From Escherichia coli (GTDB taxonomy: Bacteria; Pseudomonadota; Gammaproteobacteria; Enterobacterales; Enterobacteriaceae), in assembly GCF_044324875.1 (NCBI RefSeq), contig NZ_CP172185.1: a stretch of DNA of 64,000 bases; one strand, 5' to 3'. Shown piece after piece: positions 3,305 through 63,139 of this stretch. The translations under genes and the position numbers were made by a program. Position 1 is the first letter of the stretch; the number at the start of each line of letters is the position of its first letter. The notes below the pieces were generated by a model. It saw only the letters and a program-made list of their open reading frames with translations, was not told the DNA's origin and made no database searches.

Positions 3305-3381
3305 GCGTTCATAGCTCAGTTGGTTAGAGCACCACCTTGACATGGTGGGGGTCGTTGGTTCGAGTCCAATTGAACGCACCA
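3305..3381 (+). tRNA. valV: tRNA-Val (GAC)
   Basis: GCGTTCATAGCTCAGTTGGTTAGAGCACCACCTTGACATGGTGG...CGCACCA; cloverleaf with GAC anticodon and CCA end. Confidence 0.93.
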
Positions 3382-3385
3382 TCCT

Positions 3386-3462
3386 GCGTCCGTAGCTCAG
3401 TTGGTTAGAGCACCACCTTGACATGGTGGGGGTCGGTGGTTCGAGTCCACTCGGACGCACCA
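3386..3462 (+). tRNA. valW: tRNA-Val (GAC), tandem copy
   Basis: GCGTCCGTAGCTCAGTTGGTTAGAGCACCACCTTGACATGGTGG...CGCACCA; 4-nt spacer after valV. Confidence 0.93.
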
Positions 3463-3570
3463 GATTTTCTTAATCTGGTCTTCTCCTTTTTTCCCTCTGT
3501 TTCTTCTCTGTATCCAATACGTTAAAAGATTTACACTGTCTTCGTATGCGTTATCAGAAGGAGAATCGCT

Positions 3571-3876
3571 ATGGCAACTTTGTTACAACTTCATTTTTCT
3601 TTCAATGGCCCATTTGGCGACGCAATGGCTGAGCAGCTTAAACCGCTTGCTGAGTCGATTAATCAGGAACCTGGTTTTCTGTGGAAGGTATGGACAGAAA
3701 GTGAAAAGAACCACGAAGCCGGTGGGATCTACCTTTTTACTGATGAAAAAAGCGCCCTTGCCTATCTGGAAAAACATACTGCCCGACTGAAAAATCTCGG
3801 CGTTGAGGAAGTTGTCGCCAAAGTTTTCGATGTCAATGAGCCACTTAGTCAAATCAGTCAGGCAAAACTCGCCTGA
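3571..3876 (+). CDS. ydhR: small conserved protein (putative monooxygenase-like)
   Basis: 101-aa ORF with GGAG-type RBS; synteny. Confidence 0.8.
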
Positions 3877-21539: not shown

Positions 21540-21610
21540 AAATAAGAAAACCCTTAAGTCTGTGCGACACAGGCTTAAGGGTTTCTACCCCATCCGGCGC
21601 TTATCTCCGG
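21540..21610 (-). ncRNA. rydB: small RNA, probably RydB, with its terminator
   Basis: Minus-strand hairpin aacccttaag...cttaagggtt followed by a U-run between sufA and ydiH; identity from remembered synteny, boundaries approximate. Confidence 0.35.
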
Positions 21611-21806
21611 CACTCTCAGTGGCTTAGCTCTTGAAGGGGCGATAAGAATAATCTCATAAAGCTAACCCGCCGTTTTAACACAAACTGCGATTAGTATTAT
21701 TTTTGAACAATATCAGGCGGGTAGATAAGCAGTATTAAGAAGGTCATCGAACCTGGACGGAGGTTAATCCAGGTCGATTTGGCGAAATTGCGGCATTAAG
21801 TCAGGA

Positions 21807-27244: not shown

Positions 27245-27349
27245 ACGGTTATAAATCAACTTATTGATTTATAAGCATGGAAATCCCCTGAGTGAAACAA
27301 CGAATTGCTGTGTGTAGTCTTTGCCCATCTCCCACGATGGGCTTTTTTT
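27245..27349 (+). ncRNA. rprA: RprA small regulatory RNA
   Basis: ACGGTTATAAATCAAC...CCCATCTCCCACGATGGGCTTTTTTTT matches the RprA sequence as remembered, including its terminator. Confidence 0.9.
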
Positions 27350-27487
27350 TAACATTTTTCCGCTTCGCTATCTCGCCCCTCACTCTTTCCAATAATGTTG
27401 CACAAGATACTGTGACTCTCTTCAAGCCGTCAGCAGGCTGATAATGTTATTTATATTTTATTGTTTATTTCATGCAGCCATTACACG

Positions 27488-48179: not shown

Positions 48180-48893
48180 TTATCGCTGAACCAACGTCGT
48201 TATCTGATTTATGGGAACGGCAGGCCACAGGCATCCCTGGAGAGCATGGAAATCAAAGGGGGTAATCTGTGCCATTATTTCTAGCGTATCAATGCCCCCC
48301 GCGATGATGCAATTGCAACATGGGGAAATTTGCGCCTGGATCGCACGAATAAACGGTTCGAAGGAGCGATGCGTGATTTGTTGCTGAATAAAACTTTTAT
48401 CCAGCATGACGCGGGTGAAAAGACCATCAAAAACCGCTTTCATTGTGCTATTGCCTGCGCCCAAATTACCTAACACAAGGGGATACATTTGCGATAAGGA
48501 AAAAAGATCGCGATTATCTTTTCCTTCATCGAGATGCGGGTAATTCTCATTAATCAACAGTTCAATAAACGGATATTTTAATAGTTCGCCTGCGTAATTA
48601 TCCCTGTCTAATAATAAAGTAGCCACTTGTGGCGTTAAATTAAGCCAGGCAAAGAGTTTATGTTGAATAAAAAAGTGTTGGCATGATTTTAGTAATTCCA
48701 ACTGCTCTGAAAATAATTGCCAATGTTGCTCCTCGGTAAGTTGCGCTATAACCCGACTCGTCGGGATACGAACCGTACCATCTTCACTGGAGAAATGGGT
48801 AATTAACTCAACGCCGACAAGGTCTTGCTGGTTATCTCTTATCGGCAGGAAATAGCAATCAGAATGATAAAGATTCTCCAAAAAAATCTTCAT
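48180..48893 (-). CDS. ydiV: EAL-like anti-FlhDC factor
   Basis: 237-aa ORF. Confidence 0.85.
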   Translation of the reverse strand: MKIFLENLYHSDCYFLPIRDNQQDLVGVELITHFSSEDGTVRIPTSRVIAQLTEEQHWQLFSEQLELLKSCQHFFIQHKLFAWLNLTPQVATLLLDRDNYAGELLKYPFIELLINENYPHLDEGKDNRDLFSLSQMYPLVLGNLGAGNSTMKAVFDGLFTRVMLDKSFIQQQITHRSFEPFIRAIQAQISPCCNCIIAGGIDTLEIMAQITPFDFHALQGCLWPAVPINQITTLVQR

Positions 48894-52025: not shown

Positions 52026-52080
52026 GGTATCCGTTCTGCTGAAGTGTCATGGCGTTGATTTTACGGTGACTCTTCGACAG

Positions 52081-52108
52081 TGAAAAGAAAAAAGGCCGCA
52101 GAGCGGCC
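52081..52108 (-). terminator. rho-independent terminator (minus strand) between prophage gene 52215..52610 and btuC
   Basis: Minus strand reads ggccgc tct gcggcc followed by ttttttcttttc. Confidence 0.55.
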
Positions 52109-52214
52109 ATAATTGCAATCAAAAATCAATAATTTAAATACTTATCAATCACTTAAGAACACATTAAAATACAAGCAACCACGCAAAACGACGTGAATGT
52201 GGTCACTTTGTGGA

Positions 52215-52610
52215 TCATTCGTCCCCTTCTTTCTCTTTGTTCTGTTGAACGCTAATTGCGACACACGTAGCAATCAAATCTTTACATTTCTCCATATCTT
52301 CTGTCTTGCGCAACTTGATGCTTGCCACCGATTGTGGATTATCCGCTGTGGCACAATGCATTGTTATTTCAATGTCGTTTCGATGAAAGAGTCCCATAAT
52401 AGCTTTTGCAACCTCCGTCCCTTTTTCCGCGATATCAAAGATCAAAGCAAGTTTATACAAAATATCACCAGAAAAACACTCAACCCTGCTAAGACCAACA
52501 TCACATAATGAAAAATATTGCTCAACGTCCCCCTGGAGTTCGGGAGCACACACAATATCTATTTTTCCGTACTGGCCTGAATAAAAGTCACTATTAACTG
52601 TTTTTTTCAC
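52215..52610 (-). CDS. hypothetical protein coupled to the 3' end of int (unknown function)
   Basis: GTG at 52610 preceded by a perfect AAGGAGG SD; start overlaps the int stop by 17 nt (track ORF begins at an upstream TTG, 52631). Visibly AT-rich relative to flanks. Confidence 0.6.
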   Translation of the reverse strand: MKKTVNSDFYSGQYGKIDIVCAPELQGDVEQYFSLCDVGLSRVECFSGDILYKLALIFDIAEKGTEVAKAIMGLFHRNDIEITMHCATADNPQSVASIKLRKTEDMEKCKDLIATCVAISVQQNKEKEGDE

Positions 52611-53595
52611 AACATCCTCCTTCTTCAGCAATTGGATTAAACCTCACCGCATCCTGCAAATAATCCGGTGCAAGATGGGCATAAATCATCGTTGTCTGAA
52701 TCTTTGCGTGCCCCAGAATTTTCTGGAGCGTCAGAATATTGCCGCCGTTCATCATGAAATGACTGGCGAAAGTGTGGCGCAGCGCGTGAACGGCCTGCCC
52801 GTCAGGAATGGAAGGGGCAACCGCTTTTATCGAATCGCGCACCAGTGAATAATCCAGCGCCGGAAATACCAGCTTTCCGCCCCGTTTTTTAATTTTGTCA
52901 AACAGGCTTTCAGAAATTGGAACAGTCCGGTTTTTACTGTTTTTGGTTCTGGAAAATGTGATCCGGGAATGCAGAACGCGGCGCTGTTCAAGTGCCACCA
53001 CCTCACCCCATCGCGCCCCGGTAGATAAAAGAATTTCAGTAGCTAGCCGTTCGTCGGGATGCTCTACCAGAACGTCAAGCAGCTGGAGGCACTCCTGCCT
53101 GTTCAGATACCCCATTTCGCGCTCGCTGACCTTCATCCCTTTCAGTCCGCTAACAGGGTTATCATTCTGGAAGTGACCGGATGAGATGAGTGCGGAAAAC
53201 ATCGCGCTAAGCGCACCAACCTCGCGGTTTATGGTACTTGGCTGAATCCCCTCCTCCGCTCTTGCCACGCGTAATTCCGTTAACGTGGTGGCGTTGACGT
53301 TGTTAACACGCGGATCCCCCATCGCTTCACACACGCGCTGTAATTTGAGGCGTGTGTTCCACCCCGATTTCATCAGTTGCCCGTGAAACTTCCACCATAA
53401 TTCGATAAGTTCGGACAACGAACGGCGATCGGTCGGCGCACTGTTCCATGCGTTATTTTGGTGTTGAGCTAAAACCCAGCGTTCGAACTGGATAGCCTCC
53501 GACTTTGTTTTGAACTTTTTACGAATGCGTTTACCTTTGCGCCCATCAGGACGCATATCAACCATGTAGCCACCAGGGATTGATTTTATGCTCAT
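52594..53595 (-). CDS. int: tyrosine-type site-specific integrase (P2-like)
   Basis: C-terminal HALRHTFASHF...LGHAKIQTTMIYAHL catalytic region; start set at MSIKSIPGGY. Confidence 0.9.
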   Translation of the reverse strand: MSIKSIPGGYMVDMRPDGRKGKRIRKKFKTKSEAIQFERWVLAQHQNNAWNSAPTDRRSLSELIELWWKFHGQLMKSGWNTRLKLQRVCEAMGDPRVNNVNATTLTELRVARAEEGIQPSTINREVGALSAMFSALISSGHFQNDNPVSGLKGMKVSEREMGYLNRQECLQLLDVLVEHPDERLATEILLSTGARWGEVVALEQRRVLHSRITFSRTKNSKNRTVPISESLFDKIKKRGGKLVFPALDYSLVRDSIKAVAPSIPDGQAVHALRHTFASHFMMNGGNILTLQKILGHAKIQTTMIYAHLAPDYLQDAVRFNPIAEEGGCCEKNS

Positions 53596-53644
53596 TGGCA
53601 TACCCCCAGCGTCACAAGCCCACCGTGCCCCCAGCGTTCCATAA

Positions 53645-53953
53645 TCAGCCGTGCAGTGTGCCAGTCTTGCGGACTTTTTGAGAAGGTGATGTGCTTTCTG
53701 GCCCATCAGGGGAGAGAGTCGGGCTGATCTGCCCAGCAGCCTCGTTTGTTTTTCCCGTCATGAGCCAATTCATGTACTTAAAAAAACGAGGATGATTAAC
53801 AATCTTGACGAGAGCTTCGCCGCCGACATTCTCAATCCGACCTGTCTCATAACGGCGTAGAGTACCGATAGGTACATCAATCAGTTCACAAAACTCTTCA
53901 CGCGTTAACCCTTCCGACTCACGAATTACTCTGATTTTTTCACCAATAAACAT
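53645..53953 (-). CDS. P2 C-type immunity repressor
   Basis: 102-aa HTH protein immediately upstream of and co-oriented with int, divergent from the early operon. Confidence 0.7.
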   Translation of the reverse strand: MFIGEKIRVIRESEGLTREEFCELIDVPIGTLRRYETGRIENVGGEALVKIVNHPRFFKYMNWLMTGKTNEAAGQISPTLSPDGPESTSPSQKVRKTGTLHG

Positions 53954-53975: not shown

Positions 53976-54018
53976 GTATTCTTGATTTCAAGGTGTACTT
54001 ATAAGTACACAAGAATAC
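53976..54018. promoter_or_regulatory. operator/promoter region between repressor and early operon
   Basis: Perfect 18-bp palindrome GTGTACTTATAAGTACAC (53993..54010) flanked by gtattcttg / caagaatac; TTGACA at 53954..53959. Confidence 0.6.
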
Positions 54019-54050
54019 AAATAGCCACAGACTGGAAAGGTTACCACATC

Positions 54051-54329
54051 ATGACAAAAGTCTTGAACACATACGGGGAGACGGACTTCAACAAGCTGGC
54101 GGCAATGTACCCCTACCGTGATGAGCATGGACTGCCAGTTCTTGAGGAAAGCCTTGAGGACTACGCCAAACGAACCAATCAAGCCCTGAACACTGTTAAA
54201 AAACAGGTCGACAGAGCGCAGATCCCTATAAATCAGCATAAAAAAGGCGGGAAACGCACAGTAAATCTCTACGCAATTTTTCTGAAAACCATCATAAACG
54301 CAGAGAAATATGTACTCATGACGAAATAA
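54051..54329 (+). CDS. first early-operon gene in the Cox/Apl position (putative small DNA-binding regulator)
   Basis: 92-aa ORF from the ATG at 54051 with ggaaagg RBS; function by position only. Confidence 0.5.
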   Translation: MTKVLNTYGETDFNKLAAMYPYRDEHGLPVLEESLEDYAKRTNQALNTVKKQVDRAQIPINQHKKGGKRTVNLYAIFLKTIINAEKYVLMTK

Positions 54330-56333: not shown

Positions 56334-56576
56334 TGCGGTTTAACCCTCCTCATCATCTCGCCCCTGCCCTTTTTCAGGCGCGGGAGCCGGTTGCCGTGGC
56401 ACATGAAATTTATCGCTATCAGACATTTATTTTTTCCCGTGTGTTGTTGAACAAAGTGCCCGCACAGTTTTGACGGAACGGCGGGCGCTTCAAGCGTAAC
56501 ACACCCTTCTTTTCCGGTTGAAGGCGAAAAAAACCGGACAGCTACCCGACACAAACCAGACCAGCGGAGAACTGCC

Positions 56577-57131
56577 ATGTACGCACTTAAACCTATGGGG
56601 ATACCAGGCAAAGCCCCGGCGCATGTGAAAGCCTGGACACAGCAGGAAGATGATTTGCTGATCACCCTGTACCCGCAGCACACAGCACGAGATATCGCCG
56701 GGCGTCTGGGGCGCAGCCACGAAGGCGTGAAGAGCCGCATTTGTCGTCTGCGTGAACAGGGCAGGATTGGCATCAAGCAGCAAAGACTAAGCGATGAGAT
56801 GATCGCCACGCTCATCAGGAACCGCCACACCAGGTCCCTCAAGGAACTGGCACACATGGCGAAAGTTTCGACACGCACGGTAACCAACCGATTGAGGGCG
56901 CTGGGCTACAGCCTGATCAAATGCGGGGATCTGCATAAAAACACCGTCTACAGCGACCGCATCGTTGAGATTATCAGACAGTTACACGACGAGCAGGGCC
57001 TGACGTTCAGGGAAATCGCACAGCGCCTTAGCCACGAACTACAGCCGAACCCTACCCCGACACTGGCTCAACGTCTCTACTGGCGGTGCACAGCATCCGA
57101 CGCCGTATTCCGTGAACTGTTACCAGATTGA
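56577..57131 (+). CDS. DNA-binding protein with three tandem HTH (Myb/SANT-like) repeats
   Basis: 184-aa ORF with ggaga RBS; three ~45-aa repeats each containing an HTH-like segment. Confidence 0.55.
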   Translation: MYALKPMGIPGKAPAHVKAWTQQEDDLLITLYPQHTARDIAGRLGRSHEGVKSRICRLREQGRIGIKQQRLSDEMIATLIRNRHTRSLKELAHMAKVSTRTVTNRLRALGYSLIKCGDLHKNTVYSDRIVEIIRQLHDEQGLTFREIAQRLSHELQPNPTPTLAQRLYWRCTASDAVFRELLPD

Positions 57132-57454
57132 GCAATCACCATGTACACACAAAAAAACCGCTTGCAACAACAAACCGGAACAGGGTACGCTTCCCCCGCA
57201 CCTCATAAAGCGGGTGCCGGGTTTCGCAGCCTGCTGACTAGCAAAGCGCACAACCGCGCCAGCGGTTTTTTTGTGCGTACTGTATTGCCACGTCTTTTTC
57301 GCATCAGAATTATGGTGGGGCGTACGGGGCCGACTTCGGTCGGGCCGGTTTCTTCGTTTGCCGGTGTTGAGAACCCCGTACGTCTCGCCACCCCGAGATT
57401 CTCAACTCTGGTTGGTGAGTATCCAAAAACTCACAAACGAAGAGGCCAAACACC

Positions 57455-57673
57455 ATGGCAAACCGCAAACAGCGCCGCGCTATCGCTGCGCAGCGTCACA
57501 TCCAGACCGAAATCAACCGCAGACTCTTCCGCGCCCACAACATCGCGCGAATCATGCACGCCAACATGCTGCATGAACGCAGTAACGCGTTATCAAACCT
57601 CTATTCCGCTTCCGTTTTCAGCTATCTGGCGGACGACCTGCGCGAGCTGCAAGACCTCATTAACCAGCACTGA
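57455..57673 (+). CDS. hypothetical protein
   Basis: 72-aa ORF with aagagg RBS. Confidence 0.5.
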   Translation: MANRKQRRAIAAQRHIQTEINRRLFRAHNIARIMHANMLHERSNALSNLYSASVFSYLADDLRELQDLINQH

Positions 57674-57745
57674 TAAACAACCCGAAGCCATCCTGCGCCC
57701 GTTCGCGGGAGGCTTCCGCACATCTGTAGTCGGGAGGATTGCGCC

Positions 57746-58114
57746 ATGATTCTGGCTGACGATTTTCTGGAGTACCTGAACAACACCGAGCGCGACCTGT
57801 ACGCGCGCGTTCTCACCCGTTACGAGAAATACAAACTTTCGCTGCCAGAACATCAACTCCGCGAAGGCGATATCGACATTGAAGGGCGCTACATCGTCAG
57901 GCACCTCATAGCGGGCTACGGCATCTGGCGTGTCACCGGACGTGAGCATTCATTGCTGACCATCTGCCAGAGTCCGTCCGGCGTGATAACGGAGATCGTC
58001 GCTGATAGTCTGCGACTCACCCATCACAGCGCCACCCCGGAAGAAACGCTGGCAGAAACCCAGCGTCTGTGTCGCGTCATTGCCAACGCCGCCCTCCGCG
58101 CAGACAGGAGGTAA
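57746..58114 (+). CDS. hypothetical protein immediately upstream of gene A
   Basis: 122-aa ORF with gggagg RBS; 3-nt gap to the A start. Confidence 0.55.
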   Translation: MILADDFLEYLNNTERDLYARVLTRYEKYKLSLPEHQLREGDIDIEGRYIVRHLIAGYGIWRVTGREHSLLTICQSPSGVITEIVADSLRLTHHSATPEETLAETQRLCRVIANAALRADRR

Positions 58115-58117
58115 GCG

Positions 58118-60292
58118 ATGGAGTTCGTCAGAGACTGGCAAAAACCGCGCCCCGCTATCGGGCGCGAAGGCTTACCCGTACCTGAAACCGCACTGGATAC
58201 CATCCTGAAGTGTTACCGCGCGGACGAAGAGCGCGCCCTGAACGCTGAAGAGCAGGGTCATCCGCTTGCGGGCACAACCATCGGTAACGCGATCGACAAG
58301 TGGGAAGGCGCACAGGAGCGCCAGGAAGAGGCCATCACGCTCACACAGGAAGCGAAGAGACGCCCACCCACCCTCATTGAGGAAACCCTCAAAGAGCTGG
58401 ACACCCTGCCAAAGTGGTTGAGGCTGCCACTGATTAAGTACCTGAACTTCTTAAGGCGCAAACAGGAGGACGAACAGCAGAAAGGCAAGCGCGGCAAGGA
58501 CACCCGCAAATATGAGCGCTTCCTGAAAAACGGCATCCCCGCACGTCTTCGCCGTATTCGTGAGATTAACGCTCGCTTTGCACCGTTAAGTTTTCAGGCC
58601 GCTGCCATGCGCGAGAGTCTGGAAGAGTTAATCACACTGCCGAACCTGAGCCGTGAACGCATCCAGAAAATAGCCGTACTGCTTGCCAGCGCCGTTAAAA
58701 TGCATCTTGCCGACGCAATGGACAAGGCCCGCGAAATAACAGGGAACGACAAAGACGACAACCTGAACAACTGGCTGATTGCCTACCAGTATATTGGTCG
58801 CCGTGTCCTGAAGCTGGGGATCACCCCACCATACTGGAGCGCCCTTGAACTCCGTCCCGACCGCAGAAGCCCCCCGGACCTGACACTGGTACCGGGCGCT
58901 GTTTTGCGCCTGAACGACGCCGAATGGTGGAATAAAAAACTTCGCCAGATGCACGACGTCTGGCGTGAGGAACTTTTACGTGCAGCGGGCCTTGTATCCC
59001 GCCAGACCTCCATTTATGTGAGCCGGGAAGCGCTGGCAGACTTCCGCGAGAAACAGGCCCGTACCCGCGATTTTCTCAAAGCGCACGACGTGGAGAACGA
59101 AGACGGCGAACGCATCAGCCTGGAAGATATCTACTACGCCAGTACATCCAACCCGCATAACCGCCGCAACGAGATGATGGCGTGCGTCAAGGGAATGGAG
59201 CTTATCGCACAGGAACGTGGCGACGTGGCCTTCTTCGTCACGGTCACAGCCCCGTCTCGTTTTCACAGCGTCACCGACGCCGGTACCCTTAACCCGAAAT
59301 ACAAAGGCACAACAGTAAAAGACGCCAGCGACTATCTGGTTTATAACTTCTTCGCCTCCGCCCGCAAACTCATCAAAAAAGAGAAGCGGGGCTGGTACGG
59401 CATTCGCACCGTGGAGCCTCACCACGACGGCACGCCCCACTGGCACATGCTGGTATTCACAAGCCCCGAGAACGAAGCGCGCATCACGGAAATCATGTGC
59501 AATGCCGCCATCCGTGAAGACCGTGCAGAGCTGGGCGACGACATTACCCCGCGCTTCAAGTGCGAGAAGATAGACCCCGAAAAAGGTACGCCAACCAGCT
59601 ACATCGCCACCTACATCGGCAAAGGCATTGACGCCGCCGCATTCGGCGACACGGATCCCAAAACAGGCAAACCGCCCGTTGACCACGAAAGCGGAAAACC
59701 TATGGCGGACACCGTGGAAAACGCCGTCGCCTGGGCACGCCTGCATCGCATTCGCCAGTTCCAGTTCTTTGGCCTTCCCTCACGTCAGGTGTGGCGCGAG
59801 TTCCGCCGCCTTGCCGGACAAATGGCACGCAACCCGAAGGGGCCGCAGGCACTGACCAACCCCAAAGCCGACGCCCTCCTTGTTGCAGCCGATACGGGGT
59901 GTTTTGCCAGCTACATCATGCATCAGGGCGGTGTGCTCATTCCCCGCAGTGAATATCTGGCCCGCACGGCCTACGTCACCGCAGAAGAGCCGAACAACTA
60001 CGGCGAGTTCCCCGACCGTATTTACGGTGTACGGATGCCGGAACTGGGCGATGAGTTCACGTTATGTACCCACCCGGAAGAGTGGAAAATCGTCAGAAAG
60101 GAACCGGAACCAGACAACCGCACGGGCGAGGGTTTTGACCTTCAGGGCGACCCCGTCGCCCCTTGGACTCGTGGCAATAACTGTCACCCTGACGAAAAAA
60201 ACAACCAACAACAGCACACAAACAGAACAGTCAGAGTGGGCAAAACTGCCCCCCTTACCCCCATCGTCGGACGGTTTTGTGAGCTGGTTTAA
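58118..60292 (+). CDS. replication initiation endonuclease (P2 gpA / 186 A family, rolling-circle)
   Basis: 724-aa ORF with caggagg RBS; HDGTPHWHMLVF metal-binding motif and YIATYIGKG active-site tyrosine region. Confidence 0.85.
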   Translation: MEFVRDWQKPRPAIGREGLPVPETALDTILKCYRADEERALNAEEQGHPLAGTTIGNAIDKWEGAQERQEEAITLTQEAKRRPPTLIEETLKELDTLPKWLRLPLIKYLNFLRRKQEDEQQKGKRGKDTRKYERFLKNGIPARLRRIREINARFAPLSFQAAAMRESLEELITLPNLSRERIQKIAVLLASAVKMHLADAMDKAREITGNDKDDNLNNWLIAYQYIGRRVLKLGITPPYWSALELRPDRRSPPDLTLVPGAVLRLNDAEWWNKKLRQMHDVWREELLRAAGLVSRQTSIYVSREALADFREKQARTRDFLKAHDVENEDGERISLEDIYYASTSNPHNRRNEMMACVKGMELIAQERGDVAFFVTVTAPSRFHSVTDAGTLNPKYKGTTVKDASDYLVYNFFASARKLIKKEKRGWYGIRTVEPHHDGTPHWHMLVFTSPENEARITEIMCNAAIREDRAELGDDITPRFKCEKIDPEKGTPTSYIATYIGKGIDAAAFGDTDPKTGKPPVDHESGKPMADTVENAVAWARLHRIRQFQFFGLPSRQVWREFRRLAGQMARNPKGPQALTNPKADALLVAADTGCFASYIMHQGGVLIPRSEYLARTAYVTAEEPNNYGEFPDRIYGVRMPELGDEFTLCTHPEEWKIVRKEPEPDNRTGEGFDLQGDPVAPWTRGNNCHPDEKNNQQQHTNRTVRVGKTAPLTPIVGRFCELV

Positions 60293-61015: not shown

Positions 61016-61278
61016 AAAGAATCGCCGGAACTGACTACCAGGAGCTGCTTAAAGCGGTGGAAAACTACCGTTCAGCGCTGGTGTGGTGTGAGATTAAGCC
61101 CTGTGACCCGGGAGCAGTTAAGGATTGCAACCGGGCGCGTGAGGACATTCAGCGCGTAATTGGCTACCGCTATGTAGCAGCCATTATTGACCTTGTGAAT
61201 GAACTGGAGGAAGCAAAAGAGCGCATCGCAGAACTGGAAACCCAGAATAACCCCAACCAGCAGGAGCAGAAGCCATGA
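61012..61278 (+). CDS. hypothetical protein
   Basis: 88-aa ORF, ATGA overlap on both sides. Confidence 0.5.
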   Translation: MKRIAGTDYQELLKAVENYRSALVWCEIKPCDPGAVKDCNRAREDIQRVIGYRYVAAIIDLVNELEEAKERIAELETQNNPNQQEQKP

Positions 61279-61856
61279 AAAAAAGAGACCTTAAAAAACA
61301 CCTCCGTAGTCAGATTGAATATTTTGAAGATAAGGCTGCAAAAACAGGGCTTTCCGGTAAAGAGAACATGAACTTCAGGGCACACCTCCTGACGTGGAGA
61401 ATACTTAATATCACGAGAGATGGACTTGAGCCGCTAGCCTACCTGATGGAAGATGGCGAGACCCTCATACAGGATCCCAATGTGGAAATGGAGAAGAAAG
61501 AGATGGACCTGCCGATAATCGGGCTGTTTGAGATCCCTGAACTAATAGGACGTTATGAACACGAAAACCGCCAGCTTGCCGCCTTTTTATCCGTGACAAT
61601 CGAACGACTGGAAGCCGTGAAACACGATATTCCGTTCGGTTTTGATGAGCGCACCGAGGGTGATTTGCTCAGCTTTCAGATTGCCCTGAACGTGCTCACC
61701 GCAGAGCCTTCTGCGTGGCTACGCCCGGAACGGCACCACAACACGTTCGCATTTACCGTAATTCCCTACGATGCCGCACAGGAAGAGGATAACTTCGAGA
61801 CCAGGCTTGTTCCCCTGTATCAGATTGCGGATTTCTATACGTTGATTCGCTGGTAA
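61275..61856 (+). CDS. hypothetical protein, last gene of the coupled block
   Basis: 193-aa ORF followed by a strong terminator. Confidence 0.55.
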   Translation: MKKRDLKKHLRSQIEYFEDKAAKTGLSGKENMNFRAHLLTWRILNITRDGLEPLAYLMEDGETLIQDPNVEMEKKEMDLPIIGLFEIPELIGRYEHENRQLAAFLSVTIERLEAVKHDIPFGFDERTEGDLLSFQIALNVLTAEPSAWLRPERHHNTFAFTVIPYDAAQEEDNFETRLVPLYQIADFYTLIRW

Positions 61857-61870
61857 TCCCCCACAGTAAA

Positions 61871-61895
61871 ACAGCCCGACCGGGCTGTTTTTTTA
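61871..61895 (+). terminator. rho-independent terminator ending the early/replication operon
   Basis: acagcccg ac cgggctgt followed by ttttttt. Confidence 0.8.
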
Positions 61896-61951: not shown

Positions 61952-62338
61952 ATGAAAGCCCGTATCGGGATCATCCCGGAAAAAGCCCTGCGCCAGCACC
62001 TGATTGATATTGCCAGAGGGAAGCGAAAACCACAGCCCGACGAGCCAAAGGTATGGTTTTCATCCATCAATGCGGCAGGCCAGACGCTGAGCAATGAAAA
62101 TATCGCCCTTCTGCGTCTTATGAATGAGGAGAAGCCGCAGACCATGACCGCACTTGCGGAGTTATCCGGCAGAAAACTGAGCAACCTGTCTGTAACCCTG
62201 AAAATGCTGAGCAGCTACGGTTTTGTCAGTCTGGAAAAGAAAGGGAATACTGTACACCCGAAAGCACTTTTTACCGATTTTGAAATCATCGTTGATCCGT
62301 CCGTGGGTTCAGTACATCGCGCCACCGCCCGGCCCTGA
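61952..62338 (+). CDS. putative winged-helix transcriptional regulator
   Basis: 128-aa ORF with aagagga RBS; HTH-like segment MTALAELSGRKLSNLSVTLKMLSSYGFVS. Confidence 0.55.
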   Translation: MKARIGIIPEKALRQHLIDIARGKRKPQPDEPKVWFSSINAAGQTLSNENIALLRLMNEEKPQTMTALAELSGRKLSNLSVTLKMLSSYGFVSLEKKGNTVHPKALFTDFEIIVDPSVGSVHRATARP

Positions 62339-62350
62339 AGTGCGCAATAA

Positions 62351-62375
62351 ACAGCCCCGTTCGGGGCTGTTATTT
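62351..62375. terminator. bidirectional terminator between convergent genes
   Basis: acagcccc gttc ggggctgt with T-rich flanks on both strands. Confidence 0.7.
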
Positions 62376-62748
62376 ATTCCAGAATCAGCTGTTCAGGTGT
62401 GCAGCCGTACAGTCTGGCAAGGCGCTCAATATTTGCCCTGCGCGGGCGTTCCGTTCTTTCGAATTCGGACACGGTAGCCTGCCTGATACCCAGCGCATCC
62501 GCCACCTGCTTTTGCGTCATTCCGCGATAGATTCGCCACGCCGCCTGCATTGTGCAGCCACGCTCCGAGAGAATGTTAACCACCTCGTTGGGATACAGCG
62601 TATCAGGCGATGCACACGGTTCGTTCTGGACGTCCTCGTAGAGTTCGTCAAGGTCGCTGTCTCCTGCCAGTTTTTCAAACAACGCCACTGGCAGAATGAC
62701 GGACACCCTGTTACCCGCACCGTCAGTAATAAACTGAATCTGACTCAT
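62374..62748 (-). CDS. HigA-like antitoxin (XRE-family HTH at C-terminus)
   Basis: 124-aa ORF with aggaggg RBS; C-terminal MTQKQVADALGIRQATVSEFERT HTH. Confidence 0.65.
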   Translation of the reverse strand: MSQIQFITDGAGNRVSVILPVALFEKLAGDSDLDELYEDVQNEPCASPDTLYPNEVVNILSERGCTMQAAWRIYRGMTQKQVADALGIRQATVSEFERTERPRRANIERLARLYGCTPEQLILE

Positions 62749-62802
62749 TTACCCCTCCTGCTAAACATCGGTTTATTTTTTAATTTGCTGCCGGTGATAA
62801 AA

Positions 62803-62821
62803 AACGGCGGGTCGCCCCGCC
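62803..62821 (-). terminator. intrinsic-terminator-like hairpin between toxin and antitoxin ORFs
   Basis: Minus strand reads taa-ggcggg gcga cccgcc-GTTTTTT immediately after the toxin stop. Confidence 0.5.
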
Positions 62822-63073
62822 TTAGTATGTTGTCGAGGTTCTCCGCTGAATACGGAGGATCCTGATAACCACTATCTGCCCTCCCTCAATCGTGAACCTG
62901 ACACGGTAATGATTTACCCTGAGTCTGTACTCCCCGCCCGAGTCAGTGAGCTTTTTAATATCCAGATTCTGGAACTTCGGATAGCCATAAAGCGCGTTAA
63001 CTTTCTCGCGTAAGGATTTCTGATCCCTCGCTGGCAAAACCCGTAAATCTTTGATTGCCCGAGGGGTCCACAT
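62822..63073 (-). CDS. RelE/ParE-superfamily toxin (HigB-like)
   Basis: ...KKLTDSGGEYRLRVNHYRVRFTIEGGQIVVIRILRIQRR pattern; start may be 63073 (MWTPRAIKDL) or 63094. Confidence 0.65.
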   Translation of the reverse strand: MWTPRAIKDLRVLPARDQKSLREKVNALYGYPKFQNLDIKKLTDSGGEYRLRVNHYRVRFTIEGGQIVVIRILRIQRRTSTTY

Positions 63074-63139
63074 GATTTCAGTCGTCATAAACACACCGGA
63101 AGCAAATTATTAAAGAGCCGTGCCCGCTGGCACACCTTA

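Follow-up and report, generated by a model that had tools for sequence, protein, structure and literature searches.

A probable immI-type RNA immunity module in the early operon of a P88-like prophage of Escherichia coli

The stretch analyzed here is a gap of about 320 nt between two prophage genes in a 64,000-nt piece of the Escherichia coli contig NZ_CP172185.1 (assembly GCF_044324875.1); this piece, at its full length, is referred to as the window. The gap (57132-57454) is bounded by the stop codon of a gene for a 184-aa protein with multiple helix-turn-helix (HTH) motifs and by the ATG (57455) of a 72-aa open reading frame (ORF). A sequence-only reading of the region had described it as highly structured and non-coding, and had put forward three possible roles for it, as small RNA, attenuator or cis-acting site. 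On the plus strand we identified an IsrK-like leader RNA that ends at an intrinsic terminator, a C4 antisense RNA, and two target sites of C4 in the leader of the 72-aa ORF, which encodes a protein related to epsilon of phage P4 (Table 1). Together these features very probably constitute an immI-type second immunity module of a P88-like, P2-family prophage, homologous to c4-icd-ant of P1, seqA-CI-seqC-kil-epsilon of P4 and isrK-orf45-anrP of Gifsy-1. This kind of system is already well known, and both RNAs are already in Rfam. The literature searched contained no account of the module for P88-like or P2-like phages, and the literature on P4 immunity and on C4/epsilon in P2-like phages yielded nothing beyond the IsrK paper (PMC4825925).

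Table 1. Positions in the window of the module's RNA elements and of neighboring genes
Feature	Position	Strand	Basis or description
Integrase	52594-53706	-	P2-type switch
C-like repressor	53645-53953	-	P2-type switch
Cox-like gene	53982-54329	+	P2-type switch
Multi-HTH gene, 184 aa	56577-57131	+	phrog_323 'transcriptional regulator, D5-like'
Stop-free frame, 202 codons	57141-57749	+	crosses leader RNA, C4, targets and, in another frame, the whole epsilon-like gene
Upstream arm, candidate antiterminator	57143-57165	+	complementary to terminator 3' half and U-tract (partner 57258-57280); 23-nt inverted repeat, 91%
Putative module promoter	57162-57191	+	-35 TTGCAA 57162-57167, 18-nt spacer, -10 TACGCT 57186-57191; predicted start ~57198
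IsrK-like leader RNA (a1b1 element, P4 seqA equivalent)	57198-57272	+	Rfam isrK RF01394, 64.7 bits (threshold 50), model 1-77
Leader hairpin 1	57198-57217	+	98.8% paired in 42 relatives
Leader hairpin 2	57218-57233	+	88.6% paired in 42 relatives
a1 site	57223-57230	+	in leader hairpin 2; reads TTCGCAGC
b1 site	57238-57246	+	linker before terminator; reads CTAGCAAAG
Intrinsic terminator	stem 57252-57267, U-run 57268-57274	+	AACCGC-GCCA-GCGGTT then T7; called by terminator scan
C4 antisense RNA gene	57308-57395	+	Rfam C4 RF01695, 79.2 bits (threshold 45), model 1-87, E = 1.6e-14
b' loop of C4	57349-57360	+	TTTCTTCGTTTG; pairs with b2; 10-nt perfect complement to 57434-57443
a' segment of C4	57366-57373	+	GTTGAGAA; pairs with a2; inverted repeat
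a2 target	57399-57406	+	TTCTCAAC; in leader of epsilon-like gene; 8-nt a'-a2 match
b2 target	57434-57445	+	CAAACGAAGA; runs into Shine-Dalgarno AAGAGG (57440-57445) of epsilon-like gene
Epsilon-like 'derepression protein', 72 aa	57455-57673	+	Pfam PF25738 Derepression, E = 2.1e-8; phrog_3688, E = 2e-38
orf122	57746-58114	+	phrog_3237
P2-type gpA replication endonuclease, 724-aa ORF	58118-60292	+	phrog_91 'nicking at origin of replication', E = 8e-216

Folding of the plus-strand RNA 57132-57470 gave a minimum free energy (MFE) of -130.8 kcal/mol as compared to -102.6 +/- 5.0 kcal/mol for 100 dinucleotide shuffles (z = -5.65), none of which folded as well; the minus strand of the same region gave z = -3.85 against its shuffles. 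A terminator scan of 56400-58200 found eight terminator-like sites where 2.3 +/- 1.3 were expected. An inverted-repeat search recovered all four of the repeats named in the sequence-only reading which, together with the folding result, bears out the strong structure that it had described. Three of these repeats belong to the two RNAs. The repeat gcgcacaa..ttgtgcg around accgcgccagcggt, with its T-run, is the intrinsic terminator, with outer arms at 57247-57253 and 57271-57277; ggccgac-ttcg-gtcgggcc makes up the first of the inner hairpins of C4 (57330-57343, UUCG loop); and cgtacgggg..ccccgtacg is a portion of the 17-bp outer stem of C4 (57313-57329 / 57374-57390). In the case of the fourth, gttgagaa..ttctcaac (57366-57373 / 57399-57406), the repeat is present but does not form a hairpin within one RNA; its halves are instead the a' segment of C4 and the target a2.

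RNA families were searched with Rfam 15, and matches on the plus strand were accepted at the curated gathering thresholds. Two families, isrK and C4, matched over their full length above the gathering score. Each of the three roles proposed earlier for the stretch has found a counterpart: two RNA families account for the small RNA, the first RNA ends at an intrinsic terminator as an attenuator would, and the remaining repeats are, by covariation, antisense target sites acting in cis. A tRNA or tmRNA was also considered and rejected, as ARAGORN gives only two tRNA-Val genes, both elsewhere in the window.

Relatives of the module were collected from 80 IMG/VR loci in which a protein closely related to the 72-aa one is encoded. 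The upstream region is present in every locus, at 80–93% identity, and the resulting alignment comprises 42 distinct versions of the module. Across these versions there is hardly any change in the C4 stems, the terminator, the spacer between terminator and C4, or the core of the upstream arm; the differences cluster in six short blocks, namely a1, b1, b', a', a2 and b2. In all 42 the stem of the terminator is unchanged and paired. The three C4 stems are 100% paired, four of their pairs with compensatory change. The MFE fold of C4 (57313-57393, -48.5 kcal/mol) has a long outer stem around two hairpins and leaves a' and b' exposed. C4 also shares its AAUUAU/GG 5' junction and GCCACC 3' end with annotated P1 c4 (curated record), and by homology with the annotated P1 ends a mature C4 of 79 nt is predicted at 57314-57392. 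C4-type RNAs are processed by RNase P, and the C4 described here is likewise expected to be cut out of a longer RNA by RNase P, with trimming at its 3' end, and to act in trans as a repressor.

The pairing between C4 and its targets was assessed first by duplex energy and then by covariation. The a'-a2 duplex is worth -17.6 kcal/mol, and the offset of a2 from the C4 3' end is the same as that of annotated P1 a2. The b'-b2 duplex comprises 10 perfect base pairs that reach the Shine-Dalgarno (SD) sequence (-20.5 kcal/mol), and the start codon of the epsilon-like gene lies 11 nt past b2, as does that of P1 icd. Across the alignment, 91% of cells were paired for a'-a2 and b'-b2, with 160 double-change cells; the covariation score was 0.529 as compared to a shuffle mean of 0.121 (reached by 0 of 500 shuffles) and to slid controls of at most 0.164. 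The upstream copies behaved in the same way. For a'-a1 and b'-b1, 95.9% of cells were paired, with 165 double-change cells and a score of 0.629 (shuffle mean 0.118, reached by 0 of 500; slid controls at most 0.159). In all, the covariation spans 37 intermolecular pairs. The structure is therefore conserved among relatives and its pairing sites co-vary, which was the folding and covariance check suggested with the sequence-only reading.

These results leave next to no room for the view that there is no RNA gene here and that the hairpins arose by chance or form a simple terminator, acting in both directions, between two genes. A terminator is present, and GC-rich phage DNA often contains inverted repeats. 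However, the folding z-score, the two full-length Rfam matches, the conservation of the region at 80–93% identity in more than 80 phage contigs and the 37 co-varying intermolecular pairs all contradict this explanation, and it is already refuted by the Rfam matches and the covariation.

Among 93 parsed modules there are five a' types, at least ten b' types and 13 combinations that actually occur. In 90 of the 93, C4 has a Watson-Crick match to both target sets of at least 7 nt (a) and at least 9 nt (b). The a and b alleles reassort freely, yet each remains matched in triplicate. Free reassortment with triplicate matching is what selection for RNA-RNA recognition leaves behind when there are multiple specificities, and the alleles imply that several immunity specificities exist among these modules, a situation like that of P1 and P7. 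Citron and Schuster are said to have traced P1/P7 heteroimmunity to allelic a'/b' specificities in 1990. One relative displays an unusual arrangement. In IMGVR_UViG_2582580934_000004 (L037, ~283-320; alignment A1, columns 225-241) a 17-nt insertion duplicates the b' hairpin of C4. The two b' loops differ in type (ATTCTTTGCTCT, GTTCTTGTGTAG), which may give this C4 two specificities. In addition, the insertion disrupts the long open frame discussed below.

The ORFs across the region had been read as non-coding, which proved only partly true. The frame of 57141-57749, which ends in ATGA on the orf122 start codon, is kept open in relatives; its protein sequence, however, is not conserved. It is possible to regard this ORF as a real gene, annotated as 'Ash family protein' or, in one phage record, 'transcriptional regulator', to which the hairpins are incidental. 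The frame is stop-free in 41 of the 42 distinct relatives and of full length in about 82 of 89 loci, and three independent pairs of compensating indels restore it. Variable stop sites number 10, 2 and 8 in the three frames; of this frame's two only one lies inside the ORF, and only 1 of about 19 variable stop sites falls within it. Residues 16-87, the translation of the leader-to-C4 region, have a weak match to Pfam Phage_ASH PF10554 (E = 2.9e-4). The ORF is annotated in P884B11, and genome records are inconsistent (hypothetical, 'ash family', 'transcriptional regulator'). P4 has an analogous open frame of 214 codons across its immunity region. The internal ATG at 57312 is the counterpart of the Gifsy-1 orf45 start; orf45 takes its start from the ATG within the conserved motif AAUUAUGG and its ATGA end lies on anrP, whereas the corresponding frame in the window continues past the epsilon-like start to orf122. 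In Gifsy-1, mutation of the orf45 start codons, or a stop at the second of them, lowers anrP translation (PMC4825925).

Nevertheless, a gene whose protein product matters is unlikely. The amino acids are not conserved, and one lineage reads 55 codons of the ORF in another frame. The variation sits in the RNA pairing sites, where changes that are compensatory at the RNA level are non-synonymous in this frame, and it thus tracks RNA pairing rather than codons. Where this ORF overlaps the epsilon-like gene, it varies most at its second codon positions (38 as compared to 24 and 29). The two RNA families match independently of any frame. A conserved coding frame had been named as the finding that would count against an RNA element; the frame is conserved as open and its amino acids are not, and an open frame without a conserved protein does not overturn the RNA reading. 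It may be that passage of ribosomes through 57141-57749 matters but that the product does not. The weak Phage_ASH match over residues 16-87 suggests, moreover, that the Ash protein family is largely the translation of this RNA region.

The leader RNA and the elements around it were also compared among relatives. The putative module promoter retains the TTGC of the -35 hexamer and the T, A and final T of the -10 hexamer in all 42 distinct relatives, most of which read TTGCCA-18-TACATT, and its spacer differs at many positions. Its position is that of the experimentally defined Gifsy-1 isrK promoter (PMC4825925), of P4 PLE and of the P1 c4 promoters upstream of a1/b1. This suggests a constitutive internal promoter at 57162-57191. 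The only consensus sigma-70-like match of the region lies directly before C4 (TTGCCA-17-AATTAT, 57285-57313) and is probably fortuitous: transcription from it would start within the 5' stem of C4, about one third of relatives have TCGCCA as its -35, and P1 has no promoter there. In the RNA, the AATTAT of this site is AAUUAU, the conserved junction at the 5' end of C4. Control by LexA and the SOS response was rejected as well, as inspection of 57275-57300 by eye revealed a half-site only (CTGT...ACGT), which is not conserved.

When the whole region is folded, the upstream arm forms the dominant long-range helix in both the MFE and the centroid structure. The 42 distinct relatives keep the core of the arm, CACAAAAAAACCGC, nearly intact; three of them have a single-base change or a 1-nt deletion. 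Only transcripts from the upstream early promoter would carry the arm, and it may function as an antiterminator.

The order of the elements is that of three known systems. In P4, Rfam matches lie on the minus strand, with isrK at 8692-8615 (60.8 bits) and C4, which is the CI RNA, at 8507-8420 (74.9 bits). P4 a1 (GTGAGAA) lies in leader hairpin 2 and b1 (TTCACAGG) in the linker before the terminator; past CI come a2 (GTGAGAA) and b2 (TTCACAGGA), the latter extending into the AGGAGG of an ORF of 65 codons, the stop codon of which overlaps the epsilon start. We take this 65-aa ORF to be kil. P4 and the window thus have both RNAs in the same order and spacing, followed by an epsilon homologue and then a replication gene. 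They differ in that P4 is a satellite, whereas the window holds a helper-like phage of P2 type, with gpA nickase, C, Cox and integrase; in that b2 covers the SD of the epsilon-like gene itself rather than that of a 65-aa ORF coupled to epsilon; and in the upstream arm complementary to the terminator, which is absent from P4.

The curated P1 record lists promoters P51a and P51b, a1, b1, c4 (48343-48419), a2, b2, icd and ant. The geometry is shared with the window, in that about 25 nt separate a1 from the predicted start and the start codon comes 11 nt past b2, and the regulated operon likewise encodes an anti-repressor. In P1, however, the first regulated gene is icd, the anti-repressor Ant is unrelated to epsilon, and the prophage is a plasmid of another family. 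Rfam gives P1 C4 68.8 bits and c4-a1b1 51 bits, with an overlapping sub-threshold isrK match of 35.1 bits. The leader in the window shows the reverse pattern: it passes isrK, and its c4-a1b1 RF03163 match at 57185-57237, which overlaps the isrK match, scores 23.3 bits, under the 46.7 threshold. As the isrK and c4-a1b1 models overlap on P1 and Gifsy-1, both describe one leader element.

In the case of Gifsy-1, isrK (79.3 bits) is followed after a 25-nt gap by C4 (69 bits) and then by anrP, with b2 (TCACCG) abutting the SD (GGAGG) of anrP. Gifsy-1 differs in being a lambdoid prophage with AnrP as its anti-repressor. Gifsy-1 isrK has its own promoter and partial read-through of its terminator; the short IsrK acts in trans on the long transcript, from which a stable downstream RNA, STnc1160, is processed (PMC4825925). 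Hfq binding and activation of downstream translation in trans are known for IsrK of Gifsy-1 only (PMC4825925). The published model does not name the downstream RNA as C4. The comparison identifies the STnc1160/orf45 RNA of that paper as a C4 RNA.

Taken together, these comparisons suggest how the module would work. A promoter inside the early operon (~57162-57191) would start transcription near 57198. Most transcripts would end at the terminator (57252-57274), producing an IsrK-like RNA of about 75 nt with a1 and b1. Transcripts that read through would contain C4; by homology, RNase P cleavage and trimming of the 3' end would turn it into a tRNA-like RNA about 79 nt long (57314-57392). Pairing of C4 a'/b' with a2/b2, the latter overlapping the SD, would block translation of the epsilon-like protein, and in the lysogen polarity would probably also shut off orf122 and the replication nickase as expressed from the internal promoter. 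By analogy with Gifsy-1 IsrK and P4 seqA, the IsrK-like RNA would provide decoy copies of the targets (a1, b1) that modulate C4 action or termination. Since the intrinsic terminator lies in the middle of the operon and the distal gene A is essential for replication, transcripts from the early promoter Pe need a way through it in lytic growth. These transcripts alone would carry the arm (57143-57165) and the ATG at 57141, and either could make them insensitive to the terminator and to C4.

A second mechanism, in which C4 acts as in P4, is possible, though less likely than not. Pairing of C4 with a1/b1 and a2/b2 would then cause premature termination that keeps gene A and orf122 off in the lysogen, with the epsilon-like gene as a passenger. 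In P4, the CI RNA prevents expression of the replication genes (PMC4825925). The order of leader RNA, C4, epsilon-like gene, ORF and replication gene is the same as in P4, an intrinsic terminator lies between b1 and C4, and strong selection for a1/b1 matching fits an upstream pairing in termination. However, b2 overlaps the epsilon-like SD in every relative, as in P1 icd and Gifsy-1 anrP, which points to a translational target. The translational block and the P4-style termination are compatible, because polarity would follow from the former.

Several observations weigh against the module, or at least this copy of it, working as described. The sequence is as compatible with translational repression, as in P1, as with a mainly terminating action, as in P4. 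The promoter TTGCAA-18-TACGCT is weak by consensus and was not called by the consensus scan. When full-length C4 was cofolded with the leader, no net gain resulted, and the stable C4 must open through loop-loop contacts that are not modelled; full-length cofolding was thus uninformative and local duplex energies were used instead. The gpA gene is frameshifted by an extra A in the A-run 60189-60195 as compared to two E. coli relatives and retains 724 of 829 codons, with the remainder extending to ~60608, so that gpA may be a pseudogene and this prophage copy may be decaying, unless the homopolymer is an assembly or sequencing error. Lastly, the longest Watson-Crick run between a1 and the module's own a' is 3 nt, as compared to 7–8 nt in relatives, and that for b is 4 nt. 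Pairing with a1/b1, whatever its role, cannot work in the usual way here.

The mismatch arises from the allele carried by the leader. The window's a1 and b1 belong to another specificity than its own C4 and a2/b2, which are of type TTCTCAAC / CAAACGAAG. The b'-b1 duplex is worth -5.9 kcal/mol, as compared to -13.7 kcal/mol in the matched E. coli LH50-c version, whereas b1 of the window with b' of the matching other class gives -16.5 kcal/mol. Upstream a1/b1 copies complementary to a module's own a'/b', a mark of the C4 family, are present in 90 of the 93 modules and absent from the window; their absence reflects a recombinant copy, not a different family. In a three-way comparison with two E. 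coli prophages, the pattern was that of a single crossover. Positions 57196-57243 follow Ch1, whose module is matched and of the other class, and 57304-57449 follow LH50-c, whose matched module has the C4 class of the window; the exchange point lies within the invariant segment of terminator and spacer.

All six viral contigs that have the window's a1/b1 string carry a matching C4. The chimeric combination was found neither in IMG/VR nor in one genome per GTDB species, and none of 5426 complete E. coli genomes exceeded 96.4% identity across the junction. The window holds the only uncoupled module among the 93. It is either a rare, recent recombinant or an assembly chimera of two resident prophages. 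That an uncoupled module is so rare argues that a1/b1 matching is under selection.

The window's a1 and b1 match the C4 of the other class (a-type ACTGCGAA, b-type GTTCTTTGCTAG), which is carried by E. coli Ch1-type prophages. [quoted passage not shown] We regard this as a long shot.

The region as a whole matches P88-like phages (genus Xuanwuvirus, Peduoviridae, P2 family) at 80–84% identity. The early operon is likewise the location of the module in P88 and P88_4B11, where a variable cargo gene precedes it and the genes for a derepression protein, a hypothetical protein and the replication endonuclease follow. The order of the epsilon-like gene, orf122 and gpA is the same in P88, P88_4B11 and E. 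coli prophages. A P2-type switch lies about 3.2 kb upstream (Table 1). The gene set of a P4-like satellite (alpha primase-helicase, sid, delta, psu) was not found; the element has a P2-type gpA, an integrase, a C-like repressor and a Cox-like protein, and its close relatives are complete P88-like phages of 34–37 kb. In E. coli Ch1 a portal gene lies near the module.

The 72-aa protein shares 29% identity with P4 epsilon over 66 aa (BLASTP, E = 6e-10), and its homologues are annotated as derepression protein in P88 and E. coli records. By this similarity it is a candidate anti-repressor, and its gene is predicted to be the first that C4 controls. P88 was recovered following treatment with mitomycin C; this is in keeping with an anti-repressor route and proves nothing. 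A search of NCBIfam gave no significant family for the neighboring genes.

At a coverage of at least 80%, the module is present in 1041 of 5426 complete E. coli genomes. It therefore explains a seemingly non-coding gap in a very common prophage type, found in about one in five complete genomes. The principle worked out for P1, P4 and Gifsy-1 is unchanged, and the interest of the module rests on the parallel between helper and satellite, on its richness in alleles and on the uncoupled leader of this copy. Helper-type P2-family phages share an RNA immunity cassette and an epsilon-type anti-repressor with P4 satellites, which bears on cross-talk between the two. The many co-varying a/b alleles constitute ready-made orthogonal RNA-RNA pairs and a natural experiment in heteroimmunity.

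The gene upstream of the module is variable cargo. The multi-HTH gene occupies this slot in the window and a lipoprotein/serine protease does so in P88; homology to relatives begins just 3' of the stop codon of the 184-aa gene, at 57140-57148 depending on the relative. Downstream of gene A, the segment 61031-61890 has no alignment to E. coli relatives and contains a 193-aa ORF without a PHROG match. Relatives carry DUF6516/HVO_A0114 and HTH/RelE-type pairs around 61031-61890 and in the 61952-63100 neighborhood, which may be a hotspot for cargo or defence genes.

Rfam matches were also observed on the chromosomal part of the window (within 3305-3587, 21580-21640, 27245-27352 and 52026-52147), comprising two tRNA-Val, rydB and RprA. 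A match to the HPnc0260 antisense family lies on the strand opposite the second tRNA-Val (3386-3462), which it overlaps, and extends downstream of it. Just outside the integrase end of the prophage, an STnc540-like sub-threshold match (29 bits as compared to 38) is accompanied by a terminator.

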